The notes: generated by a model from the letters alone, not told the origin. A stretch of DNA of 64,000 bases from Carcharhinus longimanus (GCA_030264375.1 JASCQW010000032.1:41061549-41125548), one strand, 5' to 3'. Positions 27,126 through 62,989 are shown, counted from the stretch's first letter. Made by a program: numbers and translations.

Positions 27126-27734
27126 TTAAATATTGGTTTGAAACGAGATGTCAGATAAATTTCACCTGGAGTTTTGCTTCTACATAATACAGCCAACTCA
27201 ATGGAAGGAATATCTGCCTCATTTCTACCCTGTCTTTCCAATATAAAGCAGGAGGGTAATGAGATATCTTAAAATAAATCCTTACCCAGTCCTCTCAACT
27301 GAGGTTCACATGATACAATTTCTGAGTGAGCCTCGAAATAGGTGCTAAGTAGTCATGCATCAAAGCAGGCAGAAATCTCCTTACAATATCTGAATTGTGG
27401 GTTTTATGCCAAAGTTTAGGACCGTGAAGCAACTTTGATCTTCCAGTGGGACATGTGCATGATCTGCCTGGTGGAACTCAGTGCACAACAGGAGTGTCCT
27501 TCCCAGGAGCACTGCAGACTGCTCAGAAAAACTCAAACACACTATACTCCGGATGATTATGCATCATCGCCTTGGTACCAATATCATGACCCCCATCTCC
27601 ACTTTCTAGTACTGCCTCAATCCCATGAAGAGTTGCTCCCACACACCAAAATCATCTGTCGGCATGCACCAGCAGCTCACTAAATCTAATAAGGCCCAAC
27701 CAAAAATTAGTTCTGGCCACTCGGCATTGGATCC

Positions 27735-28348
27735 ACATAATCGAAATCCCAATGCATGTTAGTCATTGTGAGAAGATGGCTCTGGTTATATCACCTGCAT
27801 GCCTCTGTCTTGGGTTCTTGTAAAGGGATGAGTAGCCATCTCTTCAAGGGATGTCCTTCATCCCAGAGGAACTTTCCACAAACTTAGCGAGTGGAGTGAA
27901 GAGATGTGGCAGCCTGAATCAGCAGAGGATGAAGTAGTCATGGCAGTGTGTACTCGGAGGACAATCTAATTTTGGTCATGGAACAGTTGAACATTGAGGC
28001 AGAGGAAGTCCTTCCTGGCAACATGGGTACAATCAATACGCTCTTCAACTTACTGTATCCAGCAGCAAAATCCACAGCCCTCTGTGTTTGTGAGGGCCCC
28101 AACCATTATGTATTGAATGTATTGCTCCCACAATCTGGGCTGTCATTAGTGAGATGCAGAGTTGTGCAGCCATTTACATGATGCCAGCAAAGCCCAAAAT
28201 GATCCTTCGAAAGAACCAAAAGTGATGAGGTTTTAAGTTTAGTGACTTTGACTTCTGTTGGCAGCATATGTTGAGTGGTGCTGCCAGCTGTGAGATTTCC
28301 CACGACCCAAACATCTGTGACCACCTGTTTGGAGAGTTGCAGTCTCAC
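27735..28348 (-). mobile_element. PIF/Harbinger (HARBI1-like) transposase fossil
   Basis: Minus-strand motifs in the expected order: RLQLSKQVVTDV, HMLPTEVKVT, FGSFEG, QRAVDFAA, IDCTHVA (28017-28037), RKDFLCLNVQL, CHDYFIL, LWDEGHPLKRWLLIPLQEPKTEACR*YNQSH. Contains deletions and frameshifts. Confidence 0.85.
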
Positions 28349-28349
28349 A

Positions 28350-29309
28350 TCACACTCCAAAGCCATTGATCATCAAGGAATGGTCCAGGTTCCACTGAAG
28401 GAATTAAGTGGAAGGCAAAAGCACTGCTCAGTTTGTGGCAACTTTAAAAAAGATGACAGAACATTGTGAGTTTGGTGAGTCAGTAGAAGGTACTCTTCCA
28501 GATCAAGTTTGTGGTCTCTGAAATGAGGCTATCCAAAGAAAACTGCTTTCTGAACATGCTTTGCATTTTCTACTGTTGTCTTGAAAGTCAGTGTCAATGG
28601 AACTAGCTGCAAAAGAGGGTTCACAATTTGGGGCAGGAATGAAGATCCACAAGTTGGGAACGGCCCATAAGAAGTCAAAACCTTAACAAGCACATCACAG
28701 CGAAGTGCCAAAATGTTCCATTTAGCGAGTGAATGCTGGAGTAAGGATAGTCACTGCAACAATTGTGGCAAAATGGGTTACATTGCAAAAGCTTTTTGGA
28801 CAAGACCAGCTTCCCAACATGAATATTCAGAAGAATAACCTAGATATCTTCAAGAACAACAAATTGCATTCTACAAAAAGAATTTACAACATAAAAGAAA
28901 GGATAGCAACTGTGAAGAGGAGAATGTCCAGAAATATGATGAAGAATTCCAACTGAACACCTTATCCATACAGGGTGAATCACATAGATTCTAGGTAATT
29001 CTGAATATGAATGGACAACCTATTAGAACGCAGGTTGATATTGGCACAGCTGTATTTTTTATTCCTGAGACTACATACCAAGAGAAGCTGATGCATCTTT
29101 CTATACAACCCGCCGATGTGATTTTAAAGACATATATGGAAGAGTTGTTCTGTTAGACGGTTACATCATGATCAACGTAGAGTTGGGTGGACACACAGCA
29201 GAGTTGCCTCTCAATGTGGTGCATGTTAAGTTTACAGGACTATCTGGAAGATCATGGTTGGAGAAGATAAAGGTTAACTGGAATGCTGTCAACAGATTGG
29301 GTGATGTTA
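28350..29309 (+). mobile_element. Decayed Ty3/Gypsy LTR retrotransposon, gag and protease segment
   Basis: Frameshifted motifs: HTPKPLIIKEWSRFH, AQFVATLKKMTEHCEFG, VCGL*NEAIQRKLL, SMELAAKEGSQF, degenerate zinc knuckle CNNCGKMGYIAKAF (about 28755), protease GQPIRTQVDIGTAV (about 29012), GRSWLEKIKVNW. 5' LTR and gag N-terminus not found. Confidence 0.85.
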
Positions 29310-32300
29310 AAGAACAAAGAACAGTACAACACAGGAACTGGCCTTTGGCTCACCAAGTCTGTGCTGACACAGATGCCTCTCTGATCTAATATTTTCTTGC
29401 CTCTGCGTGGTCTGTTTCCCTCTATTATCTGCCTATTCATATATCCATCCAGATGCCCCTTGAACATTGTTATAGAATGTGCTTTCACCATTTCCTCTGG
29501 CAGCATTGTTCCAGATATTCATCACCGTGTGTGTGAAAAACTTGCCCCTTACATCTCTTTAAAACTTTCCCCCTTTCACTTTCAATCTATATCCTCGGGT
29601 AATTGACCCTTCTACCCCAGGAAAAAGATTCTGACTAACCATTCTGTCTAAGCCTGTCATAATCTTGTAAACCTCTATCAGCTCCCCCTTCATTCTCAGA
29701 CATTCCAATGAAAACAAGTCAACTTTGTTCAACCTTTCCTCATAACCCATACCCTCCAAACCAGGCAACATCCTTTCCAACATCTTCCTGGTAGTGTGGC
29801 GAGCAGAATTGTACACAATACATGAAATGCAGCCTAACCAAAGTCTAATACAGCTGCAGCATGACTTTCCAATTCCTATACTTAACGTCCCGACTGATGA
29901 AGGCCAGCATGCCATACACCTTCTTGACCATCGTTATCCACCGGAGTTGCCACCTTCAGGGAACTGTGGATCTGCATGCCAGGATCCCTCAGTATGCTAA
30001 TATTTCTAATGGCTCTACCATTTACTGTATACTTTGCTTCTGCAGTAGACATTCCAAATTGCATCAACTCACATTTGTCTAGGTTAATTTCCAGCTGCCA
30101 TCTTTTGGCCCAGGTCTCCAGATGATTTATATCCTGTTGTGTCCTCTGACAATCCCCTTCCTATCTGCTGCTCCTACAATTTTTGTATTATCTGCAAAGT
30201 TACTAATCAGATCACCTACATTACCTCCTCCCTTTTTAATTCAACATATCCTAGAATGGCAATATCCTTCTTTCTACACTCACCATCCACCACATCCTTG
30301 TCCTTTACGAATACTGACGCAAAGTACTCGTTAAGAACCTCACCCACCTCATCTGGCTCCACACACAAATTCCCTCCACTGTCCTTGAGTGGGCCTACCC
30401 TTTCCATAGATACCCTCTTCCTCTTTATATCCATATAAAAAGCCTTGGGATTCTCCTTAATCCTGCCTGCCAAGGACAAGGAGTCTTTTGCCCTCCTAAG
30501 TCCCTGTTTAAGCACTTCCATGCTTTCTTTGTATTCCTCAAGAACTTTATCCGTTTTCAATTTCCTGAAATTTATGTATGCCTCCTCCTTTTTCACTAAG
30601 CTCACAATTTCTCTTGTCATCCAGCGTTCCTGGATCTTGCCATCTTTATCCTTAATTTTTACAGGGACATAATTGTCCTGAATTGTTAACTGACCCTTAA
30701 AAGACTCCCGCATACCAGATGTGGACTTGCCCTCAAACAGCCACCCCCAGTCTACAATCTCCAACTCCTGTCTCATATTGTCGTAGTTTTCCCCCAATTT
30801 AGTACTTTCACTCTGGGACTACTTCTAACTTCTTCTACAAGTATCTTAATACTTACAGAATTGTGATCATTGTTCCCAAAATGGTGTCCCACTGAGACAT
30901 CATTTCCCAGAACCAGGTCTAAGATAGCCCCTTCCCAAATTGGATTATCTATATGTAATCTCAAGAAGCACTCTTAGGCACACTAAACAAACTCTGCCCT
31001 ATCCAAGTCTCTGGCACTGAAAGAATTCCAGTCTATGTTGGGAAAGTTAAGATCACCTATTACAACAACCCTGTTGGTTTTATATCTTCCTATGATCTGC
31101 TGACATATCAGTTCCTCCACTTATGCTGGCTGTTGGGAAGTCTGTAGTACTACTCCAACAGTGCGATTGCACTGCTGCTGTTCCTGAGTTCTACCCATTT
31201 GGCCTTACTGCATGATCCCACCAAGGTGTCCTCTTTCTGTATAGCTGTGACATTCTCCCTAATCAGTAAAGCAACATCCCCACCTCTTTTGTCACCCTCT
31301 CATCTCGCCTGAAGCATCTAAATTGTGGAATGCTGAGCTGTCAGCCCTGCCCTATTGCATCCAAATCTCTATAATTACCACAACAACATAGTTCCATTAT
31401 CCGCCTTAGCTGTCGTACTCCTTGTGTTAAAGCAAACACATGTCAGACCATCTGTCCAGTCATGTTTAGTACACTCTCCCTGCGTTTTTATTCCTCTTAG
31501 CCCAACTGGACCCATTCACTGAGTTCTCCACACTCTCTGTACTGTGGCCCTTGTTGATTTTTGTCTTTGGTTTCTCTGCCTTTCACTTTACCCCTGGCTG
31601 TCTTTTGTTTCTCGCCCTTTTTTACTTCCCTCTGACTTCCTGCATTGGTTCCCATCACCCTGCCACATTAGTTTAAACCTTCCCCAGCAGCACCAGTAAA
31701 CACTCTGTCTTTGACATTGGTTCTAATCCTGCCCAGGGTCAGACCATACGATTTGTACTGCTCCCACCTCCCTCAGAACCGGTTCAAATGTCCCAGGAAT
31801 TTCCCAACTTGGGAAAGGGCTATCTTAGACCTGGTTCTGAGAAACGAGCCCAGACAGGTGATTGATTTATTTTGTATGAATTTCTATGAATTCGAATCCC
31901 TCCCTCTTGCACCATCTCTCAACCCACGTATTCATCTCAGCTATCCTGACATTCCTACGCTGACGAGCTGCCCTCTCAATTGCGTTGGGACGTTGCAGTC
32001 TACGCACAAATGCTACTCGTGTTATTTTCCATCCTAAGTTCCTCCTCCCTGAAGGTTTTGATGGCAGTCATGTGCGTGACCTTTCCCCTCCTCACCCTGC
32101 TGACCAATCCTGTATCAGAGTCTAGCCATTGTGCCATGAGGGCCACATGGCAAACCAGCCCTGGACCCGTCCACCATCCGATTCATAGCAGAGCTGTCTT
32201 GTGGGGCTGAATGGCCTCTTTTTCCTACATTCCTGACTTAGTCTAAGCCTCCTTGTGCTTTTCAGGAGGGTCAGTATCAGTAATGGCGTGGGGGGTTGTG
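29310..32300 (-). mobile_element. Long CR1 LINE with internal deletions (ORF1 esterase remnant, endonuclease, RT) inserted into the Gypsy element
   Basis: ORFs 30216-30797 (KENPKAFY...EVLNEYFASVF), 30773-30964 (ILDLVLGN...DHNSV) and 29559-29915. Tail ttctttgttcttt at 29310; ORF1 C-terminus-like sequence at 31660-31800. Confidence 0.88.
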
Positions 32301-32907
32301 GTTGAAATCCTCTCCTTGCTCTCCAAGTAACCNNNNNNNNNNTCGGAGCAGTTCCAGATTGAGATTGGAGTACTCAGCACAGACCAGTGATCAAATCTGA
32401 GATCTCGCAGACTTCTCACTCCAGCCTGGTATAGCTAGCCACTGAGCGAGCCATCACTTTTCAAGTTGCTTGGGACAATAACATTTGGGTTGATGATTGT
32501 CCAGTGCAGCCTCATTATACGACTTCCTGTTACAGTAAAGTTACTCAACGTTGTCCCCTCGAGGCTCCACAAGGCTGCCAGCCCTAGAAGTGTTCAAAAC
32601 TCTGCTATAATTGTTGCTTGATGTGATCTAACTCCATTTTCTCTCTCTAGTGCATCCCATGAGATGTTTCCTGAGCTGCTGCTTGTTCTGCCTGATGTCT
32701 CCTCTCCTAATCAGTGCTTCCTTTTGCAGTCTGTACTATTCCTTCTAACCACTGATTTTTCAGAACCTGAAGTGTTTGATTGCATGCTTGTTGCAATAAG
32801 TGGTCCCTGGCGGTGCCGGTTGTAGTCAGTCTGGCTCCCCGTTGAAAAGTCAGCTAGCAGATGCAGCATTCAGCCACGTTGATATCAACTGCACCTTGAA
32901 GCCCTCT

Positions 32908-33400
32908 TAGAATCCCCAGGTGCAGGAGGAGGCCATTTGGCCCATCAAATCTGCACCGACTCTCCAAAAGAGCATCTCACCCAGGCACATCCCTTATCCC
33001 TGTAACTCCATGCATTTACCATGGCCAATCCTCCTAACCTGCACATCTTTGGGCACTAAGGGGCAATTTAGCATGGCCAATCCGCCTAACGTGCACATCT
33101 TTGGGCACTAAGGGGCAATTTAGCATGGCCAATCCACCTAACGCGCACATCTTTGGACACTTTTGGGTAACATAACCTGGCTGATCCTCCTAACCTACAT
33201 ATCTTTGGACACTATGGGGCAATTTGGCTCAGCCAATCCACCTAACCCTCACATCTTTGGACAATGAAAGGGAAATTTAGCTTGGTTAATCTACGTAACC
33301 TACACATCTTTGAACACTAAGGGGTAATTTAGCGTGGCCAATTCCCCTAATCTGCACATCTTTTGAGTGTGGAAGGAAACTGGAGCTCCCAGAGGAAACC
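32908..33400 (-). mobile_element. Headless HE1-type SINE with an expanded internal tandem repeat
   Basis: About 7 copies of a roughly 52-bp unit, ctaaggggcaatttagcatggccaatccacctaacctgcacatctttggaca, at 33014-33365, followed on the minus strand by the SINE tail. Confidence 0.85.
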
Positions 33401-33619
33401 CTTCTGATTCCTATTCTTGGATAGAGGGGTAGGAGAAGAAGTAGGCTGTTTTTGTTTTTCATGTAGACCAGTGCGTGAAGGGTTGCAGCCCACTTCTCAG
33501 TTTGAAAAATGGGGCAGCTCGTGAGTAACAAGTCAACTTGTATTGAAGGCAGTTCAGAAATGATTCTTCAGGCAGAATAACGGTATCTTCTGGTTAGGTT
33601 GGATTCGCTGGAATTAAGA

Positions 33620-33990
33620 AGAATGGGAGGCAATCTTATTGAAACATTTGAGATCCTGAGAGGATGTTTTCTCCCGTGGGAGTTAGGAGACATCATTTAA
33701 TAAAAAGGGTCCTCTTATTTAAGATGGATATGAGGAGGAATTTCTTTTCTCAGATGTTCATTAGTATTTGGAATCCTTTGCCCCAATGCAGTGGGGAGGC
33801 GCTGGATCTATGAATATATTCAAGGTTGAGTTAGACAGATTTTTGGTCGACCAGGGAGTCAAGGTTTATGGGGCACAGGCAGGAAAATGGGATTATGCCC
33901 ACCATCAGATCAACCATGATCTTATCGAATGACAGAACAACCTTGATGGACTGAATGCCCCCCTCCAACTCCTGTTTCTTATAATCTTCA
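33620..33990 (+). mobile_element. CR1 3' end fragment
   Basis: Contains gaagaatgggaggcaatcttattgaaaca, atattcaaggttgagttagacagattttt and a tail ...cctgtttcttat. Confidence 0.75.
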
Positions 33991-34889
33991 ACCATTTAGA
34001 TGTGGGAGAGAANNNNNNNNNNNNNNNNNNNNNNNNNNNNNNNNNNNNNNNNNNNNNNNNNNNNNNNNNNNNNNNNNNNNNNNNNNNNNNNNNNNNNNNN
34101 NNNNNNNNNNNNTAAATTCTGGAATGCGAATCTGCCAGTCCTGCCCTAAGCAGATCTGTAGCACCTTCTGGTTAAATACAACAAGTGTATTCAAAGAGAT
34201 ACTTGGCTCAATAAAGGGCATTCAAGGGAAATTCAAGATAAAGGCTAATAGTCAACCAAAATGTTCAAAGAAAGAGCAGTGCCATAGGCAATGTGTCCCA
34301 AGGTCAAAGAGGTATTTGTATGATTGTTAACATTGGTGAGTTAGAACTGGTTACAATGAGTGACTGGGCTACCCCCATCGTTCCTGTCACGAAACCAGAT
34401 GGTTCAGTTCTTTTTTAAAACAACCATAAATCCACTGTTGTGTGCTGATCAATATCAGCTTCCTTTAATTGAAAATTTGCTCAGTTATCAAGTGAGCAGA
34501 AATTCAGCAAGATTGATCTTTCTCAAGCAATTTACAGATGAATGTAGCCACGGAATCTCAACCATTGCTTATCATTATTACTAATGTAAGGTTTTTTCAT
34601 TATAAAACATTGCCTTTTGGATTAACATTGACGCCAGCCCTATTCCAAACATCAAGGGATCAGGTTTTAAGTGGTGTCTCTGATGTACAACATTACCTGG
34701 ATGATATTCAAATTACAGAGTTCAGTGAACAAGAGCACTCAAATATTTTAGAAGCAATATTGGAACGTCTTCAAATACACGGTTTGTGTATCAAGAAAGA
34801 AAAATGTGACTTTTTCCAAACGTCAGTCCAGTATTTGAGTCACATCACTGATAGTAAAGACCTACATAAAGCATCAAAAAGGATGAACG

Positions 34890-35159
34890 GGAGCCAAGCG
34901 GCACCCCAAGGTGCTCCGCAACAATATTCAAGGCATTACCAAACCTGCCATCAGGCGTCTGGCTCGCCGCCAAGGTGTCAAGTGTATCTCCGGCTGGATC
35001 TACGATGAGGTCCGCAGGGTGCTGAAGGTGTTTTTGGAGAATGTGATCAGGGACTCGGTGACCTACACTGAATACGCCAAGCGCAAAACGGTGACCGCCA
35101 TGGATGTGGTGTGCGCGCTAAAGTGCCAGGGGCGGACCCTGTATAGCTTTGGTGGTTGA
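34890..35159 (+). pseudogene. H4: Histone H4-derived sequence (residues about 14-102 plus stop), lacking the N-terminal tail and ATG, embedded in Gypsy pol
   Basis: Translates [89 protein letters not shown]. 13 of 89 residues differ from canonical metazoan H4. No promoter and no 3' stem-loop. Confidence 0.93.
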
Positions 35160-36615
35160 GGACATCGTGAAGGGGAACAGAGACTAGAAGTACCAAGACC
35201 AACGAATGCGATGCAATTGAGGTCCTTTCGAGGACTGATAAATTCTTATGGCCAATTTGTTCCGAACTTAGCTACATTATTGAATCCAGTACGTAATTTG
35301 CTATGTGTCAAACAGTCATGGGACTGGACAACAGAATGTGAGAAAGCATACAAAGATCTCATAGATTCTTTGCAGAAATCTCAAATATTGGTCCATTTTA
35401 ATCTGTAGCTACCATTACTGTTTGCTTGCGATGCAAGGGCAGTAGTTTCACATATTATGCCTTTGGAAAAAGAGCAACTAATAGCTTTTGTTGAGTGTGC
35501 TCTGATGAGTGCTGAATCTAACTCTGCTCAGTTAGAAAAAAAGAACCGAGTATAATTTTTGGCATTCAATGGCTTCATTATTATTTATATTGTTGTCATT
35601 TCACATTATCGACTGATCATCAACCCTTAACTATTATTTTTGGCCCGTATAAAGGCATACCACTGTTAGTTGCTAGGTGATTGCAAAGATAGTCATTGAT
35701 CCTACCTGCACGCTCCTATGATGTAAAGTTTCCTCAATGTCATGCTAATGCTTTATCATGCTTACTTTTACCTATTGAGCCACAAGCTGGCTTTACTAAT
35801 ATTCTTTATTTTTTGCTAGTAGATCATTTGTCTGTGACAGCTCCTCAAGTTTAGAGACATACCAGAAATAATCCTGTGATGGGGAAATTGATGGATATAG
35901 TATTGAAGGGAATGATAGTTGGAATGCATTGTTTACATCCTGATTTGTAACTACATATGTCAAGAAAGCTCGAGTTGACTGTCCAAGGTGGATGTCTATT
36001 GTAGCGATCATTCCTCCTGGCGGTGTGAGAGAGTTCCTGAACAATTACATGAAGGATATCCTGGTGTACTTCAGATGAAAGAGTCATTTTTGGTGGCTGG
36101 GTCCGAATGCTCAGATTGAAGAAAAAGTGAGACAGTGTCAATCCTGTGCATGAATAAGAAATATGTCACTGATGTCTTCTTTACAATCTAACATGCCATG
36201 GCAACAATTGCAGATAGATTTTGCTGCTCTGTTTGAGGGTCACAAGTTTTAATCATAATTGATGTACAGTCAAAGTGGCCAGGAATTATCATGAGATCTA
36301 CCACATCTGAACAAATCATTGAAAAAGTTAACAAAATCAATGCAAGATCTGGTAAACCAGAACAGATTATTAGTGATAATGGTTCAGTTTTACTGGACAA
36401 GAGTTTGAGGATTATCTCAAAGTAAGTGACATTCAATACATAAAATCCACACCTTATATCTGTCAACCAAAGGATTAGCTAGAAGATTTGTACATTTCTT
36501 GAAACATTCTTTAGAAGTTTCAAAATTGCTTTTTGGCATCTGATAGAAACACTTCTCGTGTGAGTACCCAAAGTTCACCTGCATTACTACTCTTAAAGAG
36601 AAAGTTGAGAACTAA

Positions 36616-36882
36616 CACAGCCACCCCCACCACCCCCATAACATAAATCTTTTCTAATTTTCTTTGCACTTAGTTCTAATGAAGGGTCATCCGGACTCAA
36701 AATATTGGCTTTATTCTCTCTCCNNNNNNNNNNNNNNNNNNNNNNNNNNNNNNNNNNNNNNNNNNNNNNNNNNNNNNNNNNNNNNNNNNNNNNNNNNNNN
36801 NNNNNNNNNNNNNNNNNNNNNNNCTCTCCACAGATGCTGTCAGACTGATGAGGTTTTCCAGCATTTTCTGTTTTTGGTGTTG
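36616..36882 (+). mobile_element. Penelope-type terminal fragment inserted in the Gypsy integrase, with a 14-bp target-site duplication
   Basis: Flanked by aagttgagaactaa (36602-36615) and aagttaagaactaa (36883-36896). Contains ctaatgaagggtcatccggactcaaaa, a decayed version of the core at 3104. Confidence 0.6.
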
Positions 36883-37500
36883 AAGTTAAGAACTAAGTTT
36901 GATTTATTACTACCTCTAGAAACATCAGAGGCCATAGAACGCCAACAAGAGTCTCAGGTCGCTAGACGAGAAGGCAAAATTATACCCATTTCAACAAGGT
37001 GTTCAACTGTTAGCGTGCTATTATGCCACAAATCAGAAATGGGTGTCAACCATACTTTTAGTGAAAACAGGTCCAATTTCTTACATGGTTCAAATCAAAG
37101 ATGAACTAGTTTGGCGATGCCGTGTTGACTGATTGTTGTCATCTCAAAATGATTTCTCAGAATCATCTTCAGAAGTACCAATATCTTTGGTTCCTAGTAT
37201 TGTGATTATTACTATGGAAGACTGAGACACCTAAGGATTGTGTCTATGCTACTATACCATGCAAGAATGGTGCAGAATTAGTTCCAAGAGTAGAAGTATC
37301 TACTGAAGTTCCAAATCATATTTCTGGTGTCAAGAACAGTCAAGTTCCAGAATGTCACATACAGCAATGAGGCATACACATCCTCTGATCTAATTTCTTA
37401 CTGACTGTATGTAATGGTCAATGATGCATAATACTGCATCTAAAGTATTATTGATCTTACGTATAACATTATAGTAATTTGTTGTCATGACCACAGAAAT

Positions 37501-37712
37501 AAAGGAGGGGTATTATGTATGTAAGTGGTTACAGATTGCCTAAGAGCAGATCACAGAATTTGATGGTGATGTTATTAGGGTGTTGCACAGGCTGCTGTTT
37601 TACTTTCAGTTTGTCCTCTGTACAGGCAACAGTTCCTGCAATAAATCTGTTGTTGTTAGTTTGAATCTACATGTGCAAACCACATTTTTTCAAACCCTAA
37701 CAACTCATTATA
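37501..37712 (+). mobile_element. Polypurine tract and 3' LTR of the Gypsy element
   Basis: aaaggagggg (37501-37510) is followed by about 200 bp bounded by tattatg...cattata (decayed TG...CA inverted termini), with AATAAA at 37640-37645. Confidence 0.65.
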
Positions 37713-53039: not shown

Positions 53040-55424
53040 CTGAGCCAAAGCTCTTCAAGCTACAGAGTTAATGAGTTGGGGACCAAATTGCAGACAATGT
53101 GATGTAACAGGTAAGGGGGAAGTTACCTAGACACTTCGTTCCAGAAGGCAGTCACAACCCCTTCAGAAAATATCATCCGATTTGTTCACTGGTCAGGGGC
53201 TAGAGGGTGCGACTGTGAGACAGGCAGGTGAGGGATCAAGAATGTGGAGGAGCTTCAGCTCTTGCAACTCAGCTACAAGTTTGAGGTTCTTCCAGCTTTT
53301 ATGAACAAAACTAAAGGGTGGAGGGTGGATGAGGAAACTGACCATGGCACCATGGTACAGAAAACCATTCGTGGAGGAGGAGATGGGGGTGGGGCTGTAA
53401 ATGGAATAGTAGTAGGGGGCAGTCAGGGAATAGACACCATTCTCTACAGCTGAGAACAAGAAACCTGAAGGCTATTGCCTACCAAGTGCCAGGGTTCAGG
53501 ATATCTGCTCAGGATTGGATAGGAACTTGCAGCGGGAGTGGAAAGATCCAGTTGTAGGTACCAGTGACAGAAGTAAGACTAGGAAAGAGATTATGTATCG
53601 GGAATATGAGGAGCTAGGCACTGAATTGAAAAGCACAACCTCAAAGGTAATATTCTCTGATCATGCGAGCCACGTGTAAATTGGCATAGGATAAATAAGA
53701 TAAGAGAAATGCATTCCGGTTCGTGGAGCATCGGCACCAATGCTAGGGAAAGTGGGACAGACTTCACCTGGACCATACTGGGACCAGTGTTCTAGCAAAT
53801 CGTATAACTGTGAAATGACAGAAATTTACAAGATGTTTGAAAGTGATGTAATTCAATCAGATACAAGGCTCTTAAATTGAAACATATGAAGCCATGGGGG
53901 TATAAGGAGCAAATTGGCTATGGTGGATTAGGAACCTACATAAAAAAAAATGATGGAAGACAGGCGATGGCTAACATTTAAAGAAATAATACATAGTTTA
54001 AACAAAATATATTCCTTTAATAAACAAAAACTAAATAACAAAAAGTATTCAAACTGTGGCTAAAGAAATCAAGGATTATATTGGATCAAAGGAAAATATG
54101 TTACCAAAGTTACCAAAAAAAAGCCTGAGAATCAGGAACATTTTAGAATTCTGCAAGAGGAGGAACAAGAAAAAGCTTAAGGAAACTAGAATACGAGAGT
54201 AAACTAGTGAGAAACAAAATTAATCTCCATGTAAATGGGAAAGATCAGTAAAAACAAATGTAGGTCCATTACAAACAAAGTCAGGAAAATTTATAATGGA
54301 ACTAAGGAAATGGCACAGAAACTAAACAAGTACTATGTCTGTCTTTAGGGAGGAAAATTCTAAAAACATCCCAGAAATAATGGAGAATCAAGGGATCAGG
54401 GTAAATCTGTAACCCCACTATTTCAAGAGAGAGAGAGGAAACAGGGAACTACAGACCTGTTAGCCTGACAACAGTAGTGGGGAAAATGCCAGAATCTATA
54501 ATAAAGGATGTAGTAACAGGACACTTTGAATGGTAGGATTGAGCAGAATCAACATGGGATATGCAAAAGGGAAATCATGTTTAACAACCTGCTGGAGTTT
54601 TTTTTAAAAGATATAACTAGCTAAATAGGTAAGGGGGGAACCAGTGGGTGTGGTATTTAGATCTATAGAAATCTTTTGATGAGGTCCAACACAATAAACA
54701 AAATTAGAACACATGGATCGGGGTGGGAGGAATATATTGCCATGGATTGGGAACTGATAAAGTTTATTTATTAGTCAGAAGTAAGGCTTCTATTAACAAT
54801 GCAATGAAGTTACTGTGAAATTCCCCATAAATGGGCCATTTTCCAGCCAGTAGACTCTGACTAGTGGGGTACCCCAAGGATCAGTGCTTGGACCCCAGCT
54901 ATTCAAACAATATCAATAATTTGGTCGTGGGGATTAAATTTCCAAGTTGTCAGGTAACACAAAGCTACATGAAAGTGCGAGTTAAAGAGGAAGCGAAGAT
55001 GCTGCAAGGGGATTTGGAGAGGCAAAGTAAGTAAACAAAAATCTGGCAGATGGAATACAATGTGGAGAAATGCGTGGTTATCCACTTTGGTAGGAAAACA
55101 AAAATATGGAGTATTTCTTAAATAACGAGAAGCTGGGAAGTTTTGAAATTCAAAGGGTGTCCTTGTTCAAGAGTCACTGAAAGTTTACAGCTACAGCAAG
55201 CAATTAAGAAGGCAAATGATATGTTGACCTTTATTACAAAAGGAATTTGACTATAGGAGTAAAGATGTATTACTACAATTATATGAAGCCTTGGTGAGAT
55301 CACACCTGGAGTATTTTGTGCAGTTTTAGTCTCTTTCCTAAGGCGTACAAAAGGTTCAGAGAGCTAGGAGATGTTAAGGATCTAGAGGAGTATAAGGCTT
55401 GTAGAAAGGAGCTTAAAAAGGAAA
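53040..55424 (+). mobile_element. Decayed CR1 (ORF1 esterase and ORF2 RT), with a young CR1 fragment starting about 55338
   Basis: LSYKFEVL and IVVGGS (ORF1-like), GNYRPVSLTTVVGK, PQGSVLGPQLF, WQMEYNVEKC. After about 55338 it switches to KAYKRFRELGDVKDLEEYKACRKELKKE and runs into the gap. Confidence 0.85.
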
Positions 55425-55524
55425 NNNNNNNNNNNNNNNNNNNNNNNNNNNNNNNNNNNNNNNNNNNNNNNNNNNNNNNNNNNNNNNNNNNNNNNNNNNN
55501 NNNNNNNNNNNNNNNNNNNNNNNN
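55425..55524. other. Assembly gap (100 N) joining two unlike regions
   Basis: One of 12 gaps; the others are 10076-10207, 16012-16148, 20891-20904, 22084-22183, 24761-24860, 26953-27052, 32333-32342, 34013-34112, 36724-36823, 45920-46019 and 49043-49142. Confidence 0.99.
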
Positions 55525-55801
55525 TGTTGACCCCACGGGTCTGCCTGGCACTGCCAAAGGGTCGACTCGTGTGAAAGGCATTCCATCTCATCCAACCAAA
55601 TCGGTCCGGATCCTACTCCGAATGAACGAGCGTCATAATCGATGGAAACAAGAGTGCCACAATCTAACTGTTTACAAATCACTGCTCCAACATCTAAATC
55701 CAGCTTTTCAGCGCAAACTGTTCCCCAGGACCCATTATAGAACACTTCCACTCTGCCCTCACAGCGATGCTTTCCATTCACCAAACGCAGCTCTTTGTGT
55801 T
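55525..55801 (-). CDS. SRCR domain exon 5 in window, truncated by an assembly gap (e-type-like)
   Basis: Acceptor gtttggcag|AA. Translates HKELRLVNGKHRCEGRVEVFYNGSWGTVCAEKLD...TLWQCQADPWGQ, then runs into the N-run at 55425-55524. Confidence 0.9.
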
Positions 55802-56697
55802 CTGCCAAACAAATCATAAATAATCACGAGATTCAATTATCAATTCTGTATCCACGCACTATATGTCTAAGTTGCGTTCACTGTTCGCTTATTTATTGCA
55901 TAAAGGTCACATAAAAATAGATATAATCAAGAATAAGCAGCATTGCGTTTCAATTGAAACATTTGAACGATGGACCCGATTTATTTATTCGCACAGCTTG
56001 CAGCAATGGTGAAATGGGCAATGCTACAGATGCTCTGTGCACGGATTACCAACAGAGCTTCAAGAGTTTCCCGCAGTTAAAGCCCACGAATGACAATGGG
56101 GAACCGGACAATCAAGATAAAAGTGGATTAAAATAAATGTTGTAAAATTTCTCGTTACTTCAGTGGCAGAACTTTCGGTGCGACGAAAAAGAACGTCTAT
56201 TGTGGCAGCAAACTGGCTTGTATAGTCAATACTAAAGAGAACTGCAAAGTATGTATCACAGTGTTAATACATGGCAGGATACACATGCCAATGACAACTT
56301 AGTTTTCGTACTACTCAGTGGAATGGAGCGAATTTTGATGCGAAGAATAAAGTGACAGCATACTTCTTGAGAAATAAGTGTTAAATCGAATATTTTTGCA
56401 AAATAATGTAGTTATCTGGAACATTTCACACGTAAACTGATGAAATTTAAGGCTTGTGACCGTAATAGTCAGTAATATTAATTGGAAGATAAATTTATGT
56501 CAGGAAATGAGGGATAAAGAAGCATAAGGCAACACATCAAAAGTCGGATATAGAAATATTGTAACGGTAATGATGTCCAAAATAAACAACACAGACAGGG
56601 ATTTGACAGAAGAACATTCGAAAGTGCCGTCCTTCGGTATATCAGGAACATATCTTATATATGAAACTTCTAATATAACTGAAGTTGGGACAGTTAC

Positions 56698-57012
56698 CAG
56701 AACACGTGATCTTCACATCTTCTTTATGATTACAGTCGTGTTTACCCCACAATGCATGGGGACATTCCCAGAGATATGATTCATTCCTGGAGCATTCCAA
56801 CTCATCCAACCAAATTGGCTGTGAGTCATGTCCAGCCGAAGCAGGAAGAGGAAGCCGCAATGCATGCCCACAACCCAGCTGCTTGCAAACCACGTCAGCG
56901 TCAGTCAGATCCCAGGAATCATCACAAACTGAGCCCCAGATCCCATTGTGATAAATCTCCAATCGGCCCGCACATCGGCTTCCACCGCCAGAGAGTCTTA
57001 ACTGTTTGTGTT
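56698..57012 (-). CDS. Group-B SRCR domain exon 4 in window (d-type-like)
   Basis: 315 bp, phase 1-1, acceptor ttccattag|, donor |gtaact. Translates [48 protein letters not shown]...[12 protein letters not shown] with 8 Cys. Confidence 0.94.
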
Positions 57013-57902
57013 CTAATGGAATAATGAAAGAGACAGATTATATTTCTTAAACATATTCACCTCGTTGCTAAATTCACACTATGATATCACTTCCAGATCA
57101 TTTGAAGCCTGCATTTTAACAGCCGTTGATAGGGACATTAATAAACGCTCGAGAGAAAACAGTTTCTGCTGCGAGGTAAAATAAATGATGTGGCGTTTAC
57201 AAATCTCCTAGATATCCATATTTCCAACAATAACATAGTCCGACCGTTTTCTGTTCGGTTCTGACCCATTCATTATTGCCTGTTTTGCTTTACCATCAAT
57301 AATGAAATTGTGTTAATTCGTTGTTCCACACAGAATGTTTGAGGCCGACATTTGATTCTTTGCTTTTCACTACTTCATTTTGCCATGGAAACTTCATCAG
57401 ACACTTCAACAGTTCACACATATATGTCAGTACAAATCAGAAATACTGCAAACGTGTAGGTCGGCTGACAGTCGGTTGACCTTTCAGACATTGCCCTTTC
57501 TTGCGAACTTGCCAAATTCACTGCTAAAATGTTCATCAGTTCCTTGTTATTTCAAGAATGCAGATTTCAAATCAACCCCTCCAAAACACGGGAATACAAT
57601 CAAAGCGTTTCTAAACAAACCCTGCACATTCCCACTCACCAGCAGTGACCAGTGCACACACAAAACCGCACACACACACCCTCCCTTTCCAAGTTCTCCT
57701 CTTCCCCCTCACTGAGCAACAGCACCAGCGGACTTGGCTACTTGATTTGCATTGGACTCTCTTCCGTCAATACAAATAAGTTTCAAAATACCATGGTCAT
57801 GTTCAGAGATACCCATGCTCTCCACTACTGCTCACTGCTCCATCATAATCAGTCCCACTACCCCTGGAGATCATGATAATCATTTTCCATTCACTGTCCC
57901 GT

Positions 57903-58152
57903 CCGCACAGTGGTTAGCTACGCAACGTCAGGGACCCGCGTTCGATTGTGGCTGAGGTCAGGGTATCTATGGAATTTGTACATTCTCTCCGTGTCTGCAT
58001 AGGTTTTCTCTCAGTGTTCTGGTTACGTCCATATTCTGAAAGATGTGAATGCAACCGAGCAGGCGGTGGACTGTGCCGTCTCGGAGAATTTCACTGTTAC
58101 TTCATTTCAGTGTTAATATTAGTCTTATTTGTTAATAATAAATTAACTTGAA
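57903..58152 (+). mobile_element. tRNA-derived SINE in an SRCR intron
   Basis: gcacagtggttagc...gggacccgcgttcgatt...gaatttcactgttacttcatttcagtgttaat...aataataaattaactt. Confidence 0.75.
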
Positions 58153-58611
58153 CTCAGATATCGCTTTCCTTCCCATCTGACATTTATGCAGCAGACCCTT
58201 TTTCATCCTTATTCAACAGTCGTTATGTTAGTGACTGGGACACAAGATTGCAATCCCCTTTCTGAAACGTGAGCCTCTCTCCCAATGTGCTGTTGCTGAA
58301 ATCCACCCCACTGATTAGCACATTAGTCCCCATTGCCGATGCTTCTTTAGTATGTTGGTCTCAATTTACTGAGGAAAGTTACCTGGAGATTGATAAAATT
58401 GATAAATAATTTTATTGAAGTGTTATTGTCATCATATTCCAAACTATTTTTTTTTGTTCCCTTCCCAGGGTGTCCTGTCCTGCATCCAAGCCCCAGTGTG
58501 AACTATCTCAGCTGTGTGTTCCCGAGGAAGAACTGCAGTATATTCTCCAGATGACCAAGATTACATTTTTTTTCCCTTAATGTTTCAAGAAAAAGTGACC
58601 TGTTTAATCAC

Positions 58612-58926
58612 CTGAGCACAGAACCCCCACGCCGATGCTATCACTGCGATCCGGGTTCAATGAGAATGTGCTGCACTTCCGGAGATGCGATTCGTTTCCT
58701 TCACACCAGACATCATTCACCCTCACAGGCCCTTCACCCTCTCCGTACTTTGAATTGTTATAGGCGGTTACCGCTTCGCCGCAGCCCAGCTGTCTACAGG
58801 TCACATTAGCGTCATTCAGATCCCAGAGGCTGTCCTGCACTCTGCCCCAGCTGTGGTTGTAGTAAATCTCCACTCGCCCATCACACCGACTTCCCCCATT
58901 CATCAATCTCAGTGACCAGTTTTCAT
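58612..58926 (-). CDS. SRCR domain exon 3 in window (6-Cys variant)
   Basis: 315 bp, phase 1-1, acceptor cttcgcctag|, donor |gtgatt. Translates ENWSLRLMNGGSRCDGRVEIYYNHSWGRVQDSLWDLNDANVTCRQLGCG...GVGVLCS. Confidence 0.93.
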
Positions 58927-60090
58927 CTAGGCGAAGAAAGACATTTAGAGCATTGGTTACGGTGCAACAAATTAACCCGTATTGACGTCACCTTTCACCA
59001 GTACATTTCTGTTTGTTAAAAGGTGAAGGATGTTACTGAGAGGCGGTTCAGCACAGTCAGGCAGGAGGATGAACAACCAGAACTCCTGCTCTGTACCTAA
59101 AGTAAATACATTGTTGAGCAAAACGATAATATATGTTTGCAGAACTCAAGGATGGGTTAGCATTTGGGCGGACAAATGTAGAGACATCCTTATTATTCCA
59201 GCACCACGTGTTAGTGAGTGATTTACATGGGACATAATGGATGATTATCTAGCTGAGGCGATGGTGCTAGAGGTTGGACATTCATTTCCGGCAAAATGGG
59301 CGGCAATTCTGTGTAAGTTTATCTGGGCATGCTGGGATATGCTGCAACCCATCAAAGCAGGGACAGAGGGTATTCTGGCTGTGGGATTATTTGTTCGAAA
59401 TGATAACTGAACACACAAAAAGCACGTTTTAAATATGTTAACTATTTAGAACACAAGCGAAATGTTTTCAGGAAAACACGTTTCAGAAACTTCCTGGTGT
59501 TTAATGTTCGGAGAAGCCAAAGGGGATTGTTAATAATTGTAGAAAGGATCGTGTTGTACACGTAGTTTTCCAAAAAATCACTGGAAGTCCACGTTAGAGA
59601 CGTCATTGGTCAGTTTTCGTCAATGAAATGAAAGGGCAATGGATACCCAAGTGTGAAATTGGTAGGAAATAGTACTTCGGTCTGTTAATGTGGCTTCCTT
59701 AGTGGAATATGTGGAGATCTGCTGCACGTGAGAACTGTGAAAGACATTGGCTGTGGTCTGATGGGCAGGAGGAACATCTCGAAATGTGGGGCTGCTGGTA
59801 TGCACAGATAAATGGCAGGGTCTGTCGTGACTGAATTGAAATCTGCTGCAGTAAGTGGTTAGGTTTGAAAATGAATTGTGTGAGTGTATCGTGGGAGAAG
59901 AACAATCAATACTTTTTTAAAGAATAGGGCAATTGTGCGAAGGGAAAAATAATAGAAATCTGTGAGGATATGCGTGGATTGTGACTGGGTGAGGTTCATG
60001 TCCAATAATTCTGCACAGGCTCGAATGAATTTTGTGCTTACTACACCCAAGTTTTATTGTTCTCTGAATGTCTGCATTGTGAGGACTCAC

Positions 60091-60405
60091 CCGAGCAAAT
60101 GACACTGGCATCATTTTCATGTGAGCAGTTAAACTCTTCCACGGATGAAACCAGACACTCCCACAATGGGGACTCGTTCCCGCGGCAGTTGTAGTTCTCC
60201 TTCCACATTGTCCCATTTCCCTTCCCAAAGGCTGCACCTCTCGGGATTTTCTCTACCACTCCACACTGAAGATGCTCACAGACCACACTGGCGTCTTCTA
60301 AACCAAAGTAAACATCACAGAGCGTCCCCCAGTGTTCTCCATGCAGCACTTCCACCCGGCCGGAGCACCTGTCCTTTCCACCAACCAATCTCGGCCCATG
60401 GTTTT
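60091..60405 (-). CDS. Group-B SRCR domain exon 2 in window
   Basis: 315 bp, phase 1-1, acceptor gaaacag|, donor |gtgagt. Translates NHGPRLVGGKDRCSGRVEVLHGEHWGTLCD...CSHENDASVICS with 8 Cys. Confidence 0.94.
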
Positions 60406-61400
60406 CTGTTTCAGTTACAAACACAGACCCAAATGATTTTAACGTCAAAATTAGAAGACCACAAGCCACTTTTTTGTGTGTAAATGGGAAAACACAGTTT
60501 ATATCTGCATCCACAGTCATAGCCCAGTATTCTCAAATGATCACATCGAACTAATTAACATAATATGTGATACTTTTAGGAAGGTGCTTCATCCCAAAGT
60601 GAACAGTCGATCCTGAAGAGAAAAGCTAATGCGCCATTGGCAGAATATATTGTCTTTGGAGATGGTCTAGTTTTTTTTTTACATAATCTGCACGGAGTTT
60701 AAGCATTGCACTGGGGTACAATTATAAACCGATATCCTCAAGAGCAAAAAGCTGAGAAAAAAAAAATAGCAAGTGCACCACCAGATTAGACAGAATCTGG
60801 GACCGGTTAATTCAGAAAATAAATGTCGTTCGAAATATTCCTCTGTTATTCTGTAGGTTATCCGCATTACTGACACGTTCTCCATGCTTTGAAATCTCCT
60901 CCACACATTCATATAATATTCCACCTGAAAGGTGTTGAATGGATGTAAAACGCGCACTTGCAATGCTGTTACTGAGCTTACCAATTATTTTGTTTGATGT
61001 AAGATATTTGAAATATAAAACCATTTATTCTGCTGCGTCAGTATCCCCTTTGGAATGCAAGCACAGTTATGCTCTGTGATAGTCCATGCAGTGGGTTTAT
61101 GGCTTGGGATGCAGAGCACGAATATGTAACAGCTTCATAAATAATTACATCTCAAATGTTTGAGAGAAACTCATTAAATTGGCCAAGGTATAAATCAGCA
61201 ATAATAATCTGCTAATTTCAGAACATGATTTTTTTTCCGATTTTTGCAACTCTATTCCAAAATTACAACAAATGACATGAAAAATGAAGGTCTGGTTAGT
61301 TATCTCCACGTTGGAGAGAAAGAGAACTGTCATACCTACGTTGCTGCAATATTAATATGTACATGTATTTTCCCCTCTAATATTCACTTTCTGTACTCAC

Positions 61401-61715
61401 CGGAACAGGTCACACTGACATCGTTGCTGTGGGTGCACTCGGACCGATTTACAGGAACATGGGGGCAGTCCATCAGGCCTGTCTCGCTACCCTTACATTC
61501 AAATCTATCGTTCCATATAAGTCCAGTGCCCTCCCCAAAATAAGCACCACTTCTCACGGCAACGGCACCTCCACACTGCAGCTCAGCACAGATCACTGTG
61601 ACGGCATTCCAATCCAAGTCACGGTCACACACTGTACCAGATTCTATATCGTTATGGATCTCGAGTCTGCCGGAGCATGGGGAAGGCCCGGATACTAGTT
61701 TTGGAAACCTGTGGG
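61401..61715 (-). CDS. Group-B SRCR domain exon (CD163/WC1-like receptor), most 5' domain in the window
   Basis: 315 bp, phase 1-1, acceptor ttgttcag|, donor |gtgagt. Translates HRFPKLVSGPSPCSGRLEI...CAELQCG...FGEGTGLIW...CTHSNDVSVTCS with 8 Cys; resembles CD163 SRCR5 (b-type). Confidence 0.93.
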
Positions 61716-62989
61716 CTGAACAACAACAAATCACAAAACACTAATTATTATCAAAAGAAAACTCACATCTGCTTGATTAGATTCTATCATGATTTGTTCT
61801 GAAGCTGTTTCCCCTCAGTTGCCCCTTTAATCTAAAGATCAGAGGAATTATCGAGCTGGAAACGTGGGCTCCGACCAGGGTTGGATGCTCCTTCTGTGAA
61901 ACTCCGCGGGCTGAATGGCTTCTTCTGCATTAATAAATTCTATAATTATACACCTTTCATCAAGTTCAATCTATGTGAGTGTTTATCCTCTCCAGGAGAC
62001 GTGTTCAGTCTCACAGCGGTTCCTTTGGAACACTCTTCCCCGTTCCCACTTAAATTGAATCAACTGCTGGTTTATCTCAATAAATTCTGAGTAAAGCTGC
62101 CCCCTGCCGCCTGGGGATGGGGAATATCAGAATGCGCAACAAGCGGACCTGAATCAATAACAAATGGAACTATTTGCCCAGGAACTTACTAACGGCTGGA
62201 CATAAAAAAAAATCAACATTTTGAGTTGTTTTTCGGCACGGAAACTTGTTAAGAATGAACGTTCTGAAAGTATTTCAAGCAGAAATGAAACGATGCATGT
62301 CAGAATGTCGAAATGGAAATTAGCAAACAACACTCGAGCTTTACTGAGGGTCCATGTGCACAGATCAGTAAAATGTGAAGGCCTGGTGCAAAATGAAATC
62401 AAAAATCTTTAAGATTTTTGGCATTTCTATTTAGAGGGCTAGAATATGCTTCAAGTCTCAGGAACATTGTTCAGCCCATATCTGGAACTGTACCCTTGAA
62501 AGCATCTCCTGTTCTGGAAAGTCGTCCAGGGGGAGTGTCCCAGGCTACTGGTTACTGAGTCGAGACACCATCTCCTTCTATCAGTTTACACTGTGTGAAA
62601 TCTGCCTGAAGCTGCAGCAGCTTTAAATATTAAAACAACTAATCTCCCTTCATTTTATTCTGGAGAAAGTATCGACTGCCGCACATTTGTTTCAAATACA
62701 ACCTCCTGATCAAATTGATCCAGCACAATTTATTGAACAACAACGGGACACTCCACCAATAATATTTCTGTTTTCTCTCCCTGACAGACTCGAACGGTAA
62801 AGTCGACGAAAAAACAACAGGGAAAATAATAGAGGAAGAGCTGGTATTCATCAGATTCAGGGAGTGAGAGGGAGATAAGTTTCCAAATCGTGTCGAACAT
62901 TTTGAGAAGAGGATTTACATGACAGTTGTTAAAACGACACCCCTGGAGATGCAGGGGATATCCAGTCAGTCCCCTCTCACACAAAATCA

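Follow-up and report, generated by a model that had tools for sequence, protein, structure and literature searches.

A fragment of a histone H4 coding sequence interrupts a decayed Gypsy retrotransposon in the genome of Carcharhinus longimanus, within the 64,000-nucleotide stretch analysed here (GCA_030264375.1 JASCQW010000032.1:41061549-41125548; hereafter the window). It is best explained, with a probability of about 0.7, as a one-off insertion, driven by a LINE or made in the patching of a break, into a Gypsy copy that was already resident. Between these two routes, we weight an endonuclease-dependent start against an endonuclease-independent patch at about 60:40, and the insert is likely to be one of many dispersed H4 copies, and to have landed in a Gypsy by chance.

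The reverse transcriptase (RT) frame has its last pol position at 34888, on the 5' side of the insert, and pol restarts with LEVPRP at 35184/5. Positions 34890-35156 encode H4 codons 14-102 (canonical H4 chains in the PDB, E = 3e-43), and the H4 stop codon (TGA, 35157-35159) is followed by a short non-coding stretch that leads into LEVPRPTN of pol. The first-pass annotation of this DNA had described pol as interrupted by these same H4 codons and a TGA, in the same orientation as the element and out of frame with the upstream RT; the RVT_1 match, the PDB matches and the LEVPRP restart agree with that description, and the H4 frame is +1 relative to RT. It had also given the insert as about 294 bp with about 24 nt of 3' sequence, of which the anatomy stands and the lengths are revised: because sibling H4 copies from related genomes match through 35181-35185, the donor 3' part is 25-26 nt and the insert (34890-35185) 295-296 bp. 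Its two parts are:

34890-35156, plus strand: histone H4 codons 14-102, of the V54/S69 elasmobranch variant, without a start codon and with 11 amino-acid changes.
35157-35185, plus strand: H4 stop codon and 25-26 nt of donor 3' sequence, through which six sibling H4 pieces align as far as 35181-35185, without stem-loop or tail; the last base is common with pol.

The insert lies sense to Gypsy in the linker between RT and RNase H, and the first ATG within it is at 35100. Its composition (57% G+C, CpG observed/expected about 0.75) differs from that of pol (37% G+C, about 0.3).

The host has the domain order of vertebrate Ty3/Gypsy elements, with RT followed by weak RNase H and integrase zinc-binding and core matches; this copy is dead and carries three interruptions. 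Its recognizable parts are:

28348-28680, plus strand: C-terminal part of the Gypsy gag, decayed (tblastn to residues 79-190 of the relative P0128, 48% identity, E = 2e-23; no Pfam hit).
28719-29310, plus strand: zinc-knuckle/protease region of the same Gypsy, decayed (tblastn to P0249 at 28719-29135 and 29183-29296, E = 4.5e-21; domain names given by eye; no Pfam hit).
29311-34148, no strand assigned: repeats of LINE-like and SINE-like kinds, nested between protease and RT and including two assembly gaps (pieces recur elsewhere in the window; boundaries by eye).
34187-34889, plus strand: Gypsy reverse transcriptase as far as the 5' junction (RVT_1, E = 2.3e-17; one stop and five frameshifts by frameshift-aware alignment to P0128).
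35185-36615, plus strand: Gypsy connection, RNase H and integrase (RT_RNaseH E = 6e-5, Integrase_H2C2 E = 9e-4 and rve E = 3e-4, none reaching the Pfam cut-offs; six stops, 6-8 frameshifts).
36602-36896 including target-site duplication (TSD), no strand assigned: SINE-like insertion in integrase, about 36616-36882 with an assembly gap inside (14-bp TSD with one mismatch, 36602-36615 and 36883-36896).
36897-37702, plus strand: integrase tail (tblastn to P0156 at 36965-37180, E = 8e-9), polypurine-tract-like run at 37501-37510 and candidate 3' LTR at 37511-37702 (tract and LTR by eye).

Identity to the best relatives (P0128 from the teleost Serrasalmus, P0132 from the teleost Salmo, and P0135) is 47-52%, and a cluster mate of the Gypsy relatives carries the name 'Gypsy retrotransposon integrase-like'. 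Pieces of this Gypsy make up about 3.7 kb of 62.9 kb in the window. The many stops and frameshifts noted earlier in the host pol were recovered here: over about 690 codons there are 7 stops and 11-13 frameshifts. The stop-free runs on either side of the insert measure 124 codons (5') and 74 codons (3'). The gag lacks its 5' part and the element its 5' LTR, unless these have been displaced. When the 5' LTR was searched for, scores were 25-37, which is shuffle level (shuffled maximum 34, with one region shuffled), and for this reason there is no LTR-LTR date. The stretch at 27127-28347, about 1.2 kb 5' of the gag match, showed no match to Gypsy relatives or Pfam.

Besides H4, at least two insertions arrived in this copy after its integration, in keeping with our reading of H4 as a further late arrival. 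The one in integrase, which we take to be a SINE, has a TSD score of 11, above all 281 random pairs; as an internal control, it shows that a TSD can survive in this Gypsy copy. Many loose ends were seen at 36614-36720 among pieces from related genomes. As for the nest between protease and RT, whose repeats we presume to be of the CR1 and SINE kinds, a Pfam search with two of its ORFs gave no hit. It includes a tandem array at 33014-33363 (6.7 copies of a 52-bp unit, which is also found singly in repeats elsewhere in the window), a 44-nt inverted pair (30900-30943 and 31804-31847, 91%) and a 36-nt direct pair (31319-31354 and 34113-34148, 83%), the two pairs suggesting local inversion or duplication.

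Across the insert, the Gypsy is continuous to within 5-6 nt. The loss from the element amounts to 2 codons in 72 of the 77 usable relatives, aligned on both sides, out of 150 RT relatives examined; these came from a HMMER library search, a prior word-index search with the RT piece having found no longer relatives at E<=1e-20. Compared with four H4-free copies, the loss is 6, 3, 5 and 6 nt, these being the four contigs across the site among the 12 of 72 joint rows listed, all from sequencing run X21. Both measures bear out the earlier estimate that about 5 nt of the linker were lost. The overlap at the junctions is 0-1 nt, as sibling H4 pieces begin at 34890-34891 and end at 35181-35185, a value read from the ends of sibling H4 and H4-free pol pieces and carrying a signal that age can erode.

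These junctions resemble the class 2 templated insertions attributed to endonuclease-independent retrotransposition (Onozawa and Aplan 2016, PMC5110952), which in the account given there have neither TSD, tail nor poly(A) signal, accompany a microdeletion and show 0-1 nt of overlap; the 295 bp here also fall inside the 73-414 bp of the experimental insertions. This class matches the insert on every junction mark tested, its end-joining marks being a microdeletion, microhomology or untemplated bases. Its template is a distant locus that stays intact; here an intact variant protein is on record in skates, and the window has no other H4. It differs in that the insertions described there are polymorphisms of human cells with a known empty allele, whereas the one studied here is old and shared with a related species, with no empty orthologous site among the matches listed, and in that an endonuclease-like site lies 14 nt upstream of the present 5' junction.

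The first-pass annotation had leaned instead towards capture of an H4 mRNA by an LTR element, perhaps followed by amplification. One form of this idea is that a co-packaged mRNA of the H4 variant was copied when RT switched to it and returned within about 6 nt, the copy then integrating broken and leaving no progeny, which we judge unlikely. LTR-mediated retrocopies (Tan et al. 2016, PMC5131818) are alike in being partial mRNA copies that lie in sense between two parts of a single LTR element, without an L1 tail or TSD; here, likewise, both ends are truncated, and RT upstream and RNase H plus integrase downstream are colinear with single relatives. According to the same study, LTR routes account for about half of recent retrocopies in zebrafish and chicken (5 of 7 and 4 of 10 cases, respectively), and the review PMC4997597 places on record short host sequences inserted into a retroviral RT gene by recombination; both counts weigh against our preferred explanation, as does the sense orientation inside an LTR element, which is what capture predicts. 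On the other hand, the retrocopies of PMC5131818 replace part of the internal ORFs, whereas here nothing internal beyond 5-6 nt was replaced, and, according to its main text, not one of 15 Drosophila LTR-mediated cases had the appearance of foreign sequence set into a continuous element. Their junctions are mostly microsimilar (median 6 bp, at 25 of 29 junctions or 86%), against 0-1 nt here, the older mouse junctions of that study showing microsimilarity at 9 of 22 only; and a second locus was not found among the matches listed. As described there, they also have no L1 recognition site, and capture leaves the endonuclease-like site upstream of the present insert, which has no tail or TSD either, unexplained. 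They further carry both LTRs and an insert as old as the element; here a 5' LTR was not found, and the ages of insert and host could not be told apart (p = 0.19-0.68). A capture of the insertion type, with the Gypsy packaging H4-variant mRNA and two switches back within 6 nt in the absence of microsimilarity, is rather improbable; it could have left a few daughter copies among further pieces. In view of the continuous element, the 0-1 nt overlap and the absence of a paralogous junction-bearing piece among those listed, we do not follow the proposal of capture, and of the options first put forward a one-off insertion into the Gypsy gives the best fit.

The marks of canonical LINE retrotransposition were sought directly. 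Neither an A-tail nor AATAAA was found at the insert, the best repeat score around it was 6, equalled by 40 of 281 random pairs and thus at chance level, no Rfam match was obtained around it at E<=10, and the RNA fold at the insert was no better than that of shuffles (z -0.42 and +0.90). The earlier report of no poly(A), TSD or stem-loop is therefore correct. A near-repeat (34884-34892 and 35168-35176) was considered as a TSD and rejected, since it scores no better than chance and the right-hand copy is part of the donor sequence. The absence of a TSD pair and tail counts against our preferred reading, all the more as the SINE-like insertion in the same Gypsy retains its TSD. On the other hand, the missing poly(A), which had been taken as a pointer to the LTR route, is no argument for it, because tailless histone retropseudogenes, 51 of them in human and defined by TSDs, are attributed to L1 (Noll et al. 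2015, PMC5322556).

A further feature lies just upstream of the 5' junction:

34874-34880, plus strand: L1-endonuclease-like site TC/AAAAA, with the 5' junction 14 nt beyond the start of its A run.

In target-primed insertion by L1, the left flank ends with such a stretch as the first copy of the TSD (PMC5322556). Of 2073 points in this pol, 49 (2.4%, the TC/AAAAA run included) have a site of the YY/AAAA type 7-20 nt upstream, which lends support to our preferred reading, the motif having been noticed post hoc. One H4-free copy has TT and an A run at this position, and no YY/AAAA site was seen by eye at the target of the SINE-like insertion. L1-clade elements are presumed to be present in sharks. 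The tailless histone retropseudogenes of L1 (PMC5322556) resemble the insert in being 5'-truncated, tailless copies of a histone mRNA with an A-rich, nick-like site at TSD distance, and in having the 3' end inside the RNA, here 25-26 nt after the stop. They differ in being defined by a TSD pair of 8-35 nt together with complementarity at the priming site, whereas the present insert lacks the second copy and some 6 nt of its target have gone. Their target is of the TT/WAAAA type; the site here is TC/AAAAA. As the second TSD copy, the tail and about 6 nt are absent, a LINE endonuclease route needs end-trimming or an early deletion.

The insertion may thus be pictured as follows. A LINE endonuclease would have nicked the DNA at TC/AAAAA, and a cut of the second strand 14 nt downstream would have set the 5' junction; alternatively, the process would have started from a spontaneous break at the site of that junction. 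A LINE-type reverse transcriptase would then have begun to copy an H4 mRNA within the 3' UTR and stopped in codon 14. At the right-hand end, trimming ahead of priming or an early deletion would have removed the second target-site copy and about 6 nt, so that a microdeletion stands in place of a TSD.

To place the insertion in time, its decay was compared with that of the host. Relative to the closest H4 variant, 11 of 89 residues are changed, including R45C, L49W and R92C, and at least 12 nucleotide changes were counted in 198 non-synonymous sites (6.1%, interval 3.1-10.6%). The insert is a pseudogene and has decayed as neutral DNA does. A functional or recently exapted H4 was rejected on the grounds of no start codon, 11 changes in 89 residues and no stem-loop; of the marks of a functional H4 gene, the full 102 residues, the start codon and a 3' processing signal are absent at the insert. 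The insert had been singled out for having no stops or indels and many CpGs, which is true and yet no sign of youth or function: at the rate of damage in pol, a lesion-free stretch of 89 codons has P = 0.08-0.10, so the contrast between a clean insert and a damaged pol is not significant.

Simulation, in which the CpG boosts and the transition bias were assumed and the top H4 grid point was extrapolated, far from the maxima, put the background divergence of pol since its death at about 7.8% and that of the insert at 6.3%, 4.6% and 3.9% for CpG boosts of 1, 6 and 10. The point estimates (insert 4-6%, host 7.8%) lean to a younger insert, as our preferred reading predicts and a single capture does not; on the other hand, an equal age of 5-7% for both was not rejected (p = 0.68, 0.30 and 0.19 for the same boosts), which counts against the preferred reading and suits capture. 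The comparison of divergence proposed in the first-pass annotation thus gave a direction and no significant difference; as the ages of insert and Gypsy were not told apart, a single LTR capture retains some probability. At equal age, an indel-free insert has P = 0.2. Pairwise distances to sibling pieces were smaller for H4 (14.3%, n = 9) than for pol (17.6%, n = 14; Mann-Whitney, p = 0.001), the pieces being selected and non-independent and the pol set censored at 20%, with eight orthologue-level pieces and nine H4 pieces excluded from it. Overall, the direction of the estimates favours an insertion later than the integration of the Gypsy. Divergence is kept here in per cent; PMC10587355 gives a rate per generation with a tenfold interval.

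Twenty-two public runs from related genomes cover part of 34113-36723, and four of them (X1, X10, X20 and X21) were compared by matches at an identity floor of 80%. There was no RNA data set among those listed, which carries no information on expression. From 22,020 pieces, 32 were listed, the longest and some at the joints, with the orientation of records read from the table; the floor loses divergent pol, and pol paralogues near 20% divergence barely pass it. Well-covered pol sites have 30-108 contigs per site in each run. Ten of the 32 listed pieces overlap the insert, and one of these (X21 record 31, 35135-35464) crosses the 3' junction, with 51 letters to one side and 279 to the other, differing from the window at 27 of 330 positions (8%) with 2 gaps. 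Two neighbouring X21 pieces are at 6.6% and 7.5% and of similar depth (14-17), and one of them (27 differences in 408) carries the locus-specific border between repeat and pol at 34148. We read the three pieces as the orthologous locus at 7.4%. A contig across the 3' junction at orthologue distance implies that the insert predates the split, so that it is old and shared with a related species, and makes an assembly chimera unlikely. Such a fusion of a Gypsy contig with an H4 contig could be suspected from the 12 gaps in the window and from the fact that none of the 32 listed pieces bridges the 5' junction; with an independent run crossing the 3' junction and pol restarting within 6 nt of its stopping point, we regard it as barely credible.

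The other nine insert-overlapping pieces are, among the matches listed, H4 copies that differ by 12-16%, eight of them with gaps and several on long contigs of single-copy-like depth. Six run past the 5' match end with 22-1130 unlike letters, four beginning at 34890-34891, and five run past 35181-35185 with 250-3324 unlike letters; none of the nine enters pol among the matches listed. The junction-sharing loci that would mark an H4-carrying Gypsy subfamily, another proposal of the first-pass annotation, did not appear: no paralogous junction-bearing piece was present among the ten listed pieces in the four runs. According to this proposal, the locus would be one member of an amplified H4-bearing family mobilised in trans. 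Two Drosophila cases of remobilised captured retrocopies (PMC5131818) provide a precedent, and the pieces and joint rows listed (32 of 22,020 and 12 of 72) are a small part of the matches, taken above a floor that loses divergent pol. Set against this are a single junction-bridging piece in ten, at orthologue distance, unlike sequence rather than pol beyond six 5' and five 3' match ends, and four H4-free contigs out of the four listed across the site, which make a subfamily very unlikely.

Many dispersed, decayed H4 copies with a common 3' sequence are present in related genomes. At 35113 there are 20-48 H4-like contigs per run, a count that includes working H4 genes. With tens of dispersed copies per genome, and with LTR elements occupying a few percent of it, as we assume, it need cause no surprise that one copy landed in such an element in sense orientation. 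The number of H4-like contigs at 34905-35010 is 9-40 per listed site in X1, X10 and X21 and 2-7 in X20, whereas pol counts in X20 are similar to those of the other three; the low H4 count of X20 may reflect a lineage difference in copy number or an effect of contig fragmentation.

The donor was traced through two residues of the insert, V54 and S69, which in canonical H4 are T and A. Both occur together in 6 of 146 fetched H4 proteins, five of them from skates or white shark and the sixth from another record with further differences; an intact 103-residue H4 with V54/S69 is on record for Amblyraja radiata, and the white shark form has apparently decayed. From these residues, the donor is an elasmobranch H4 variant, which makes an elasmobranch origin likely for the window too, and a fungal or contaminant source of V54/S69 was rejected in favour of this variant. 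H4 variants are rare. A second protein search added no further V54/S69 carriers, its 90% clusters hiding such variants; a search of metagenome contigs with the stop-plus-UTR pattern returned at least 118 loci, none encoding H4 among the matches listed; and no other H4 was found in the window. The changes T54V and A69S, with S1T in three records, are common to three skates and the white shark (P0051, P0052, P0054, P0070 and P0271), and in all the V54/S69 copies the stop is followed by a shared purine-rich stretch, whose first 26 nt contain no stem-loop. No papers on this locus or on the variant were found in a literature that lacked most subscription papers, and the elasmobranch variant (S1T, T54V, A69S) is apparently undescribed.

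Because H4 has no introns, an RNA template is unprovable. A patch made in break repair with DNA as the template, be it an H4 gene or an older pseudogene, and with no RNA step, would agree with this intronless donor, and the microdeletion and 0-1 nt overlap suit end joining. Still, both ends of the insert lie in the transcribed region, which an abundant mRNA would explain better, and the experimental templated insertions described in PMC5110952 are rich in transcribed sequence and fewer with RT inhibitors; we find such a patch extremely improbable.

In the window as a whole, Rfam found nothing and ARAGORN no tRNA. On the minus strand, exon-sized frames with an SRCR domain follow one another at 55413-61740 (Pfam SRCR, E = 1e-25 to 1e-34 in the three tested), in a stretch whose CpG observed/expected of about 0.6 is twice the window average; this is a multi-SRCR gene that may be a recent duplicate or under-methylated. 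The minus strand also has an exon-like frame at 9636-9995, in which an acidic stretch and the beginning of a C2H2 finger can be read and which gave no Pfam hit; we presume it to resemble JAZF1.

Taken as a whole, the locus is probably an ordinary fossil insertion, with no histone-carrying mobile family behind it: a dead H4 fragment in a dead retrotransposon, of a kind known from mammals, whose use is as a shared-insertion marker among related elasmobranchs. If the capture reading were true, it would be an exception to the rule that separates LTR-made from LINE-made retrocopies by replacement or clean interruption, and an insertion-type capture would differ from the replacement-type captures described in animals. 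The locus also points to the H4 variant common to skates and the white shark. This V54/S69 form may be a non-canonical H4 that seeds retrocopies, and would then be a putative germ-line-expressed source of them; the variant and its dispersed copies are the better lead.
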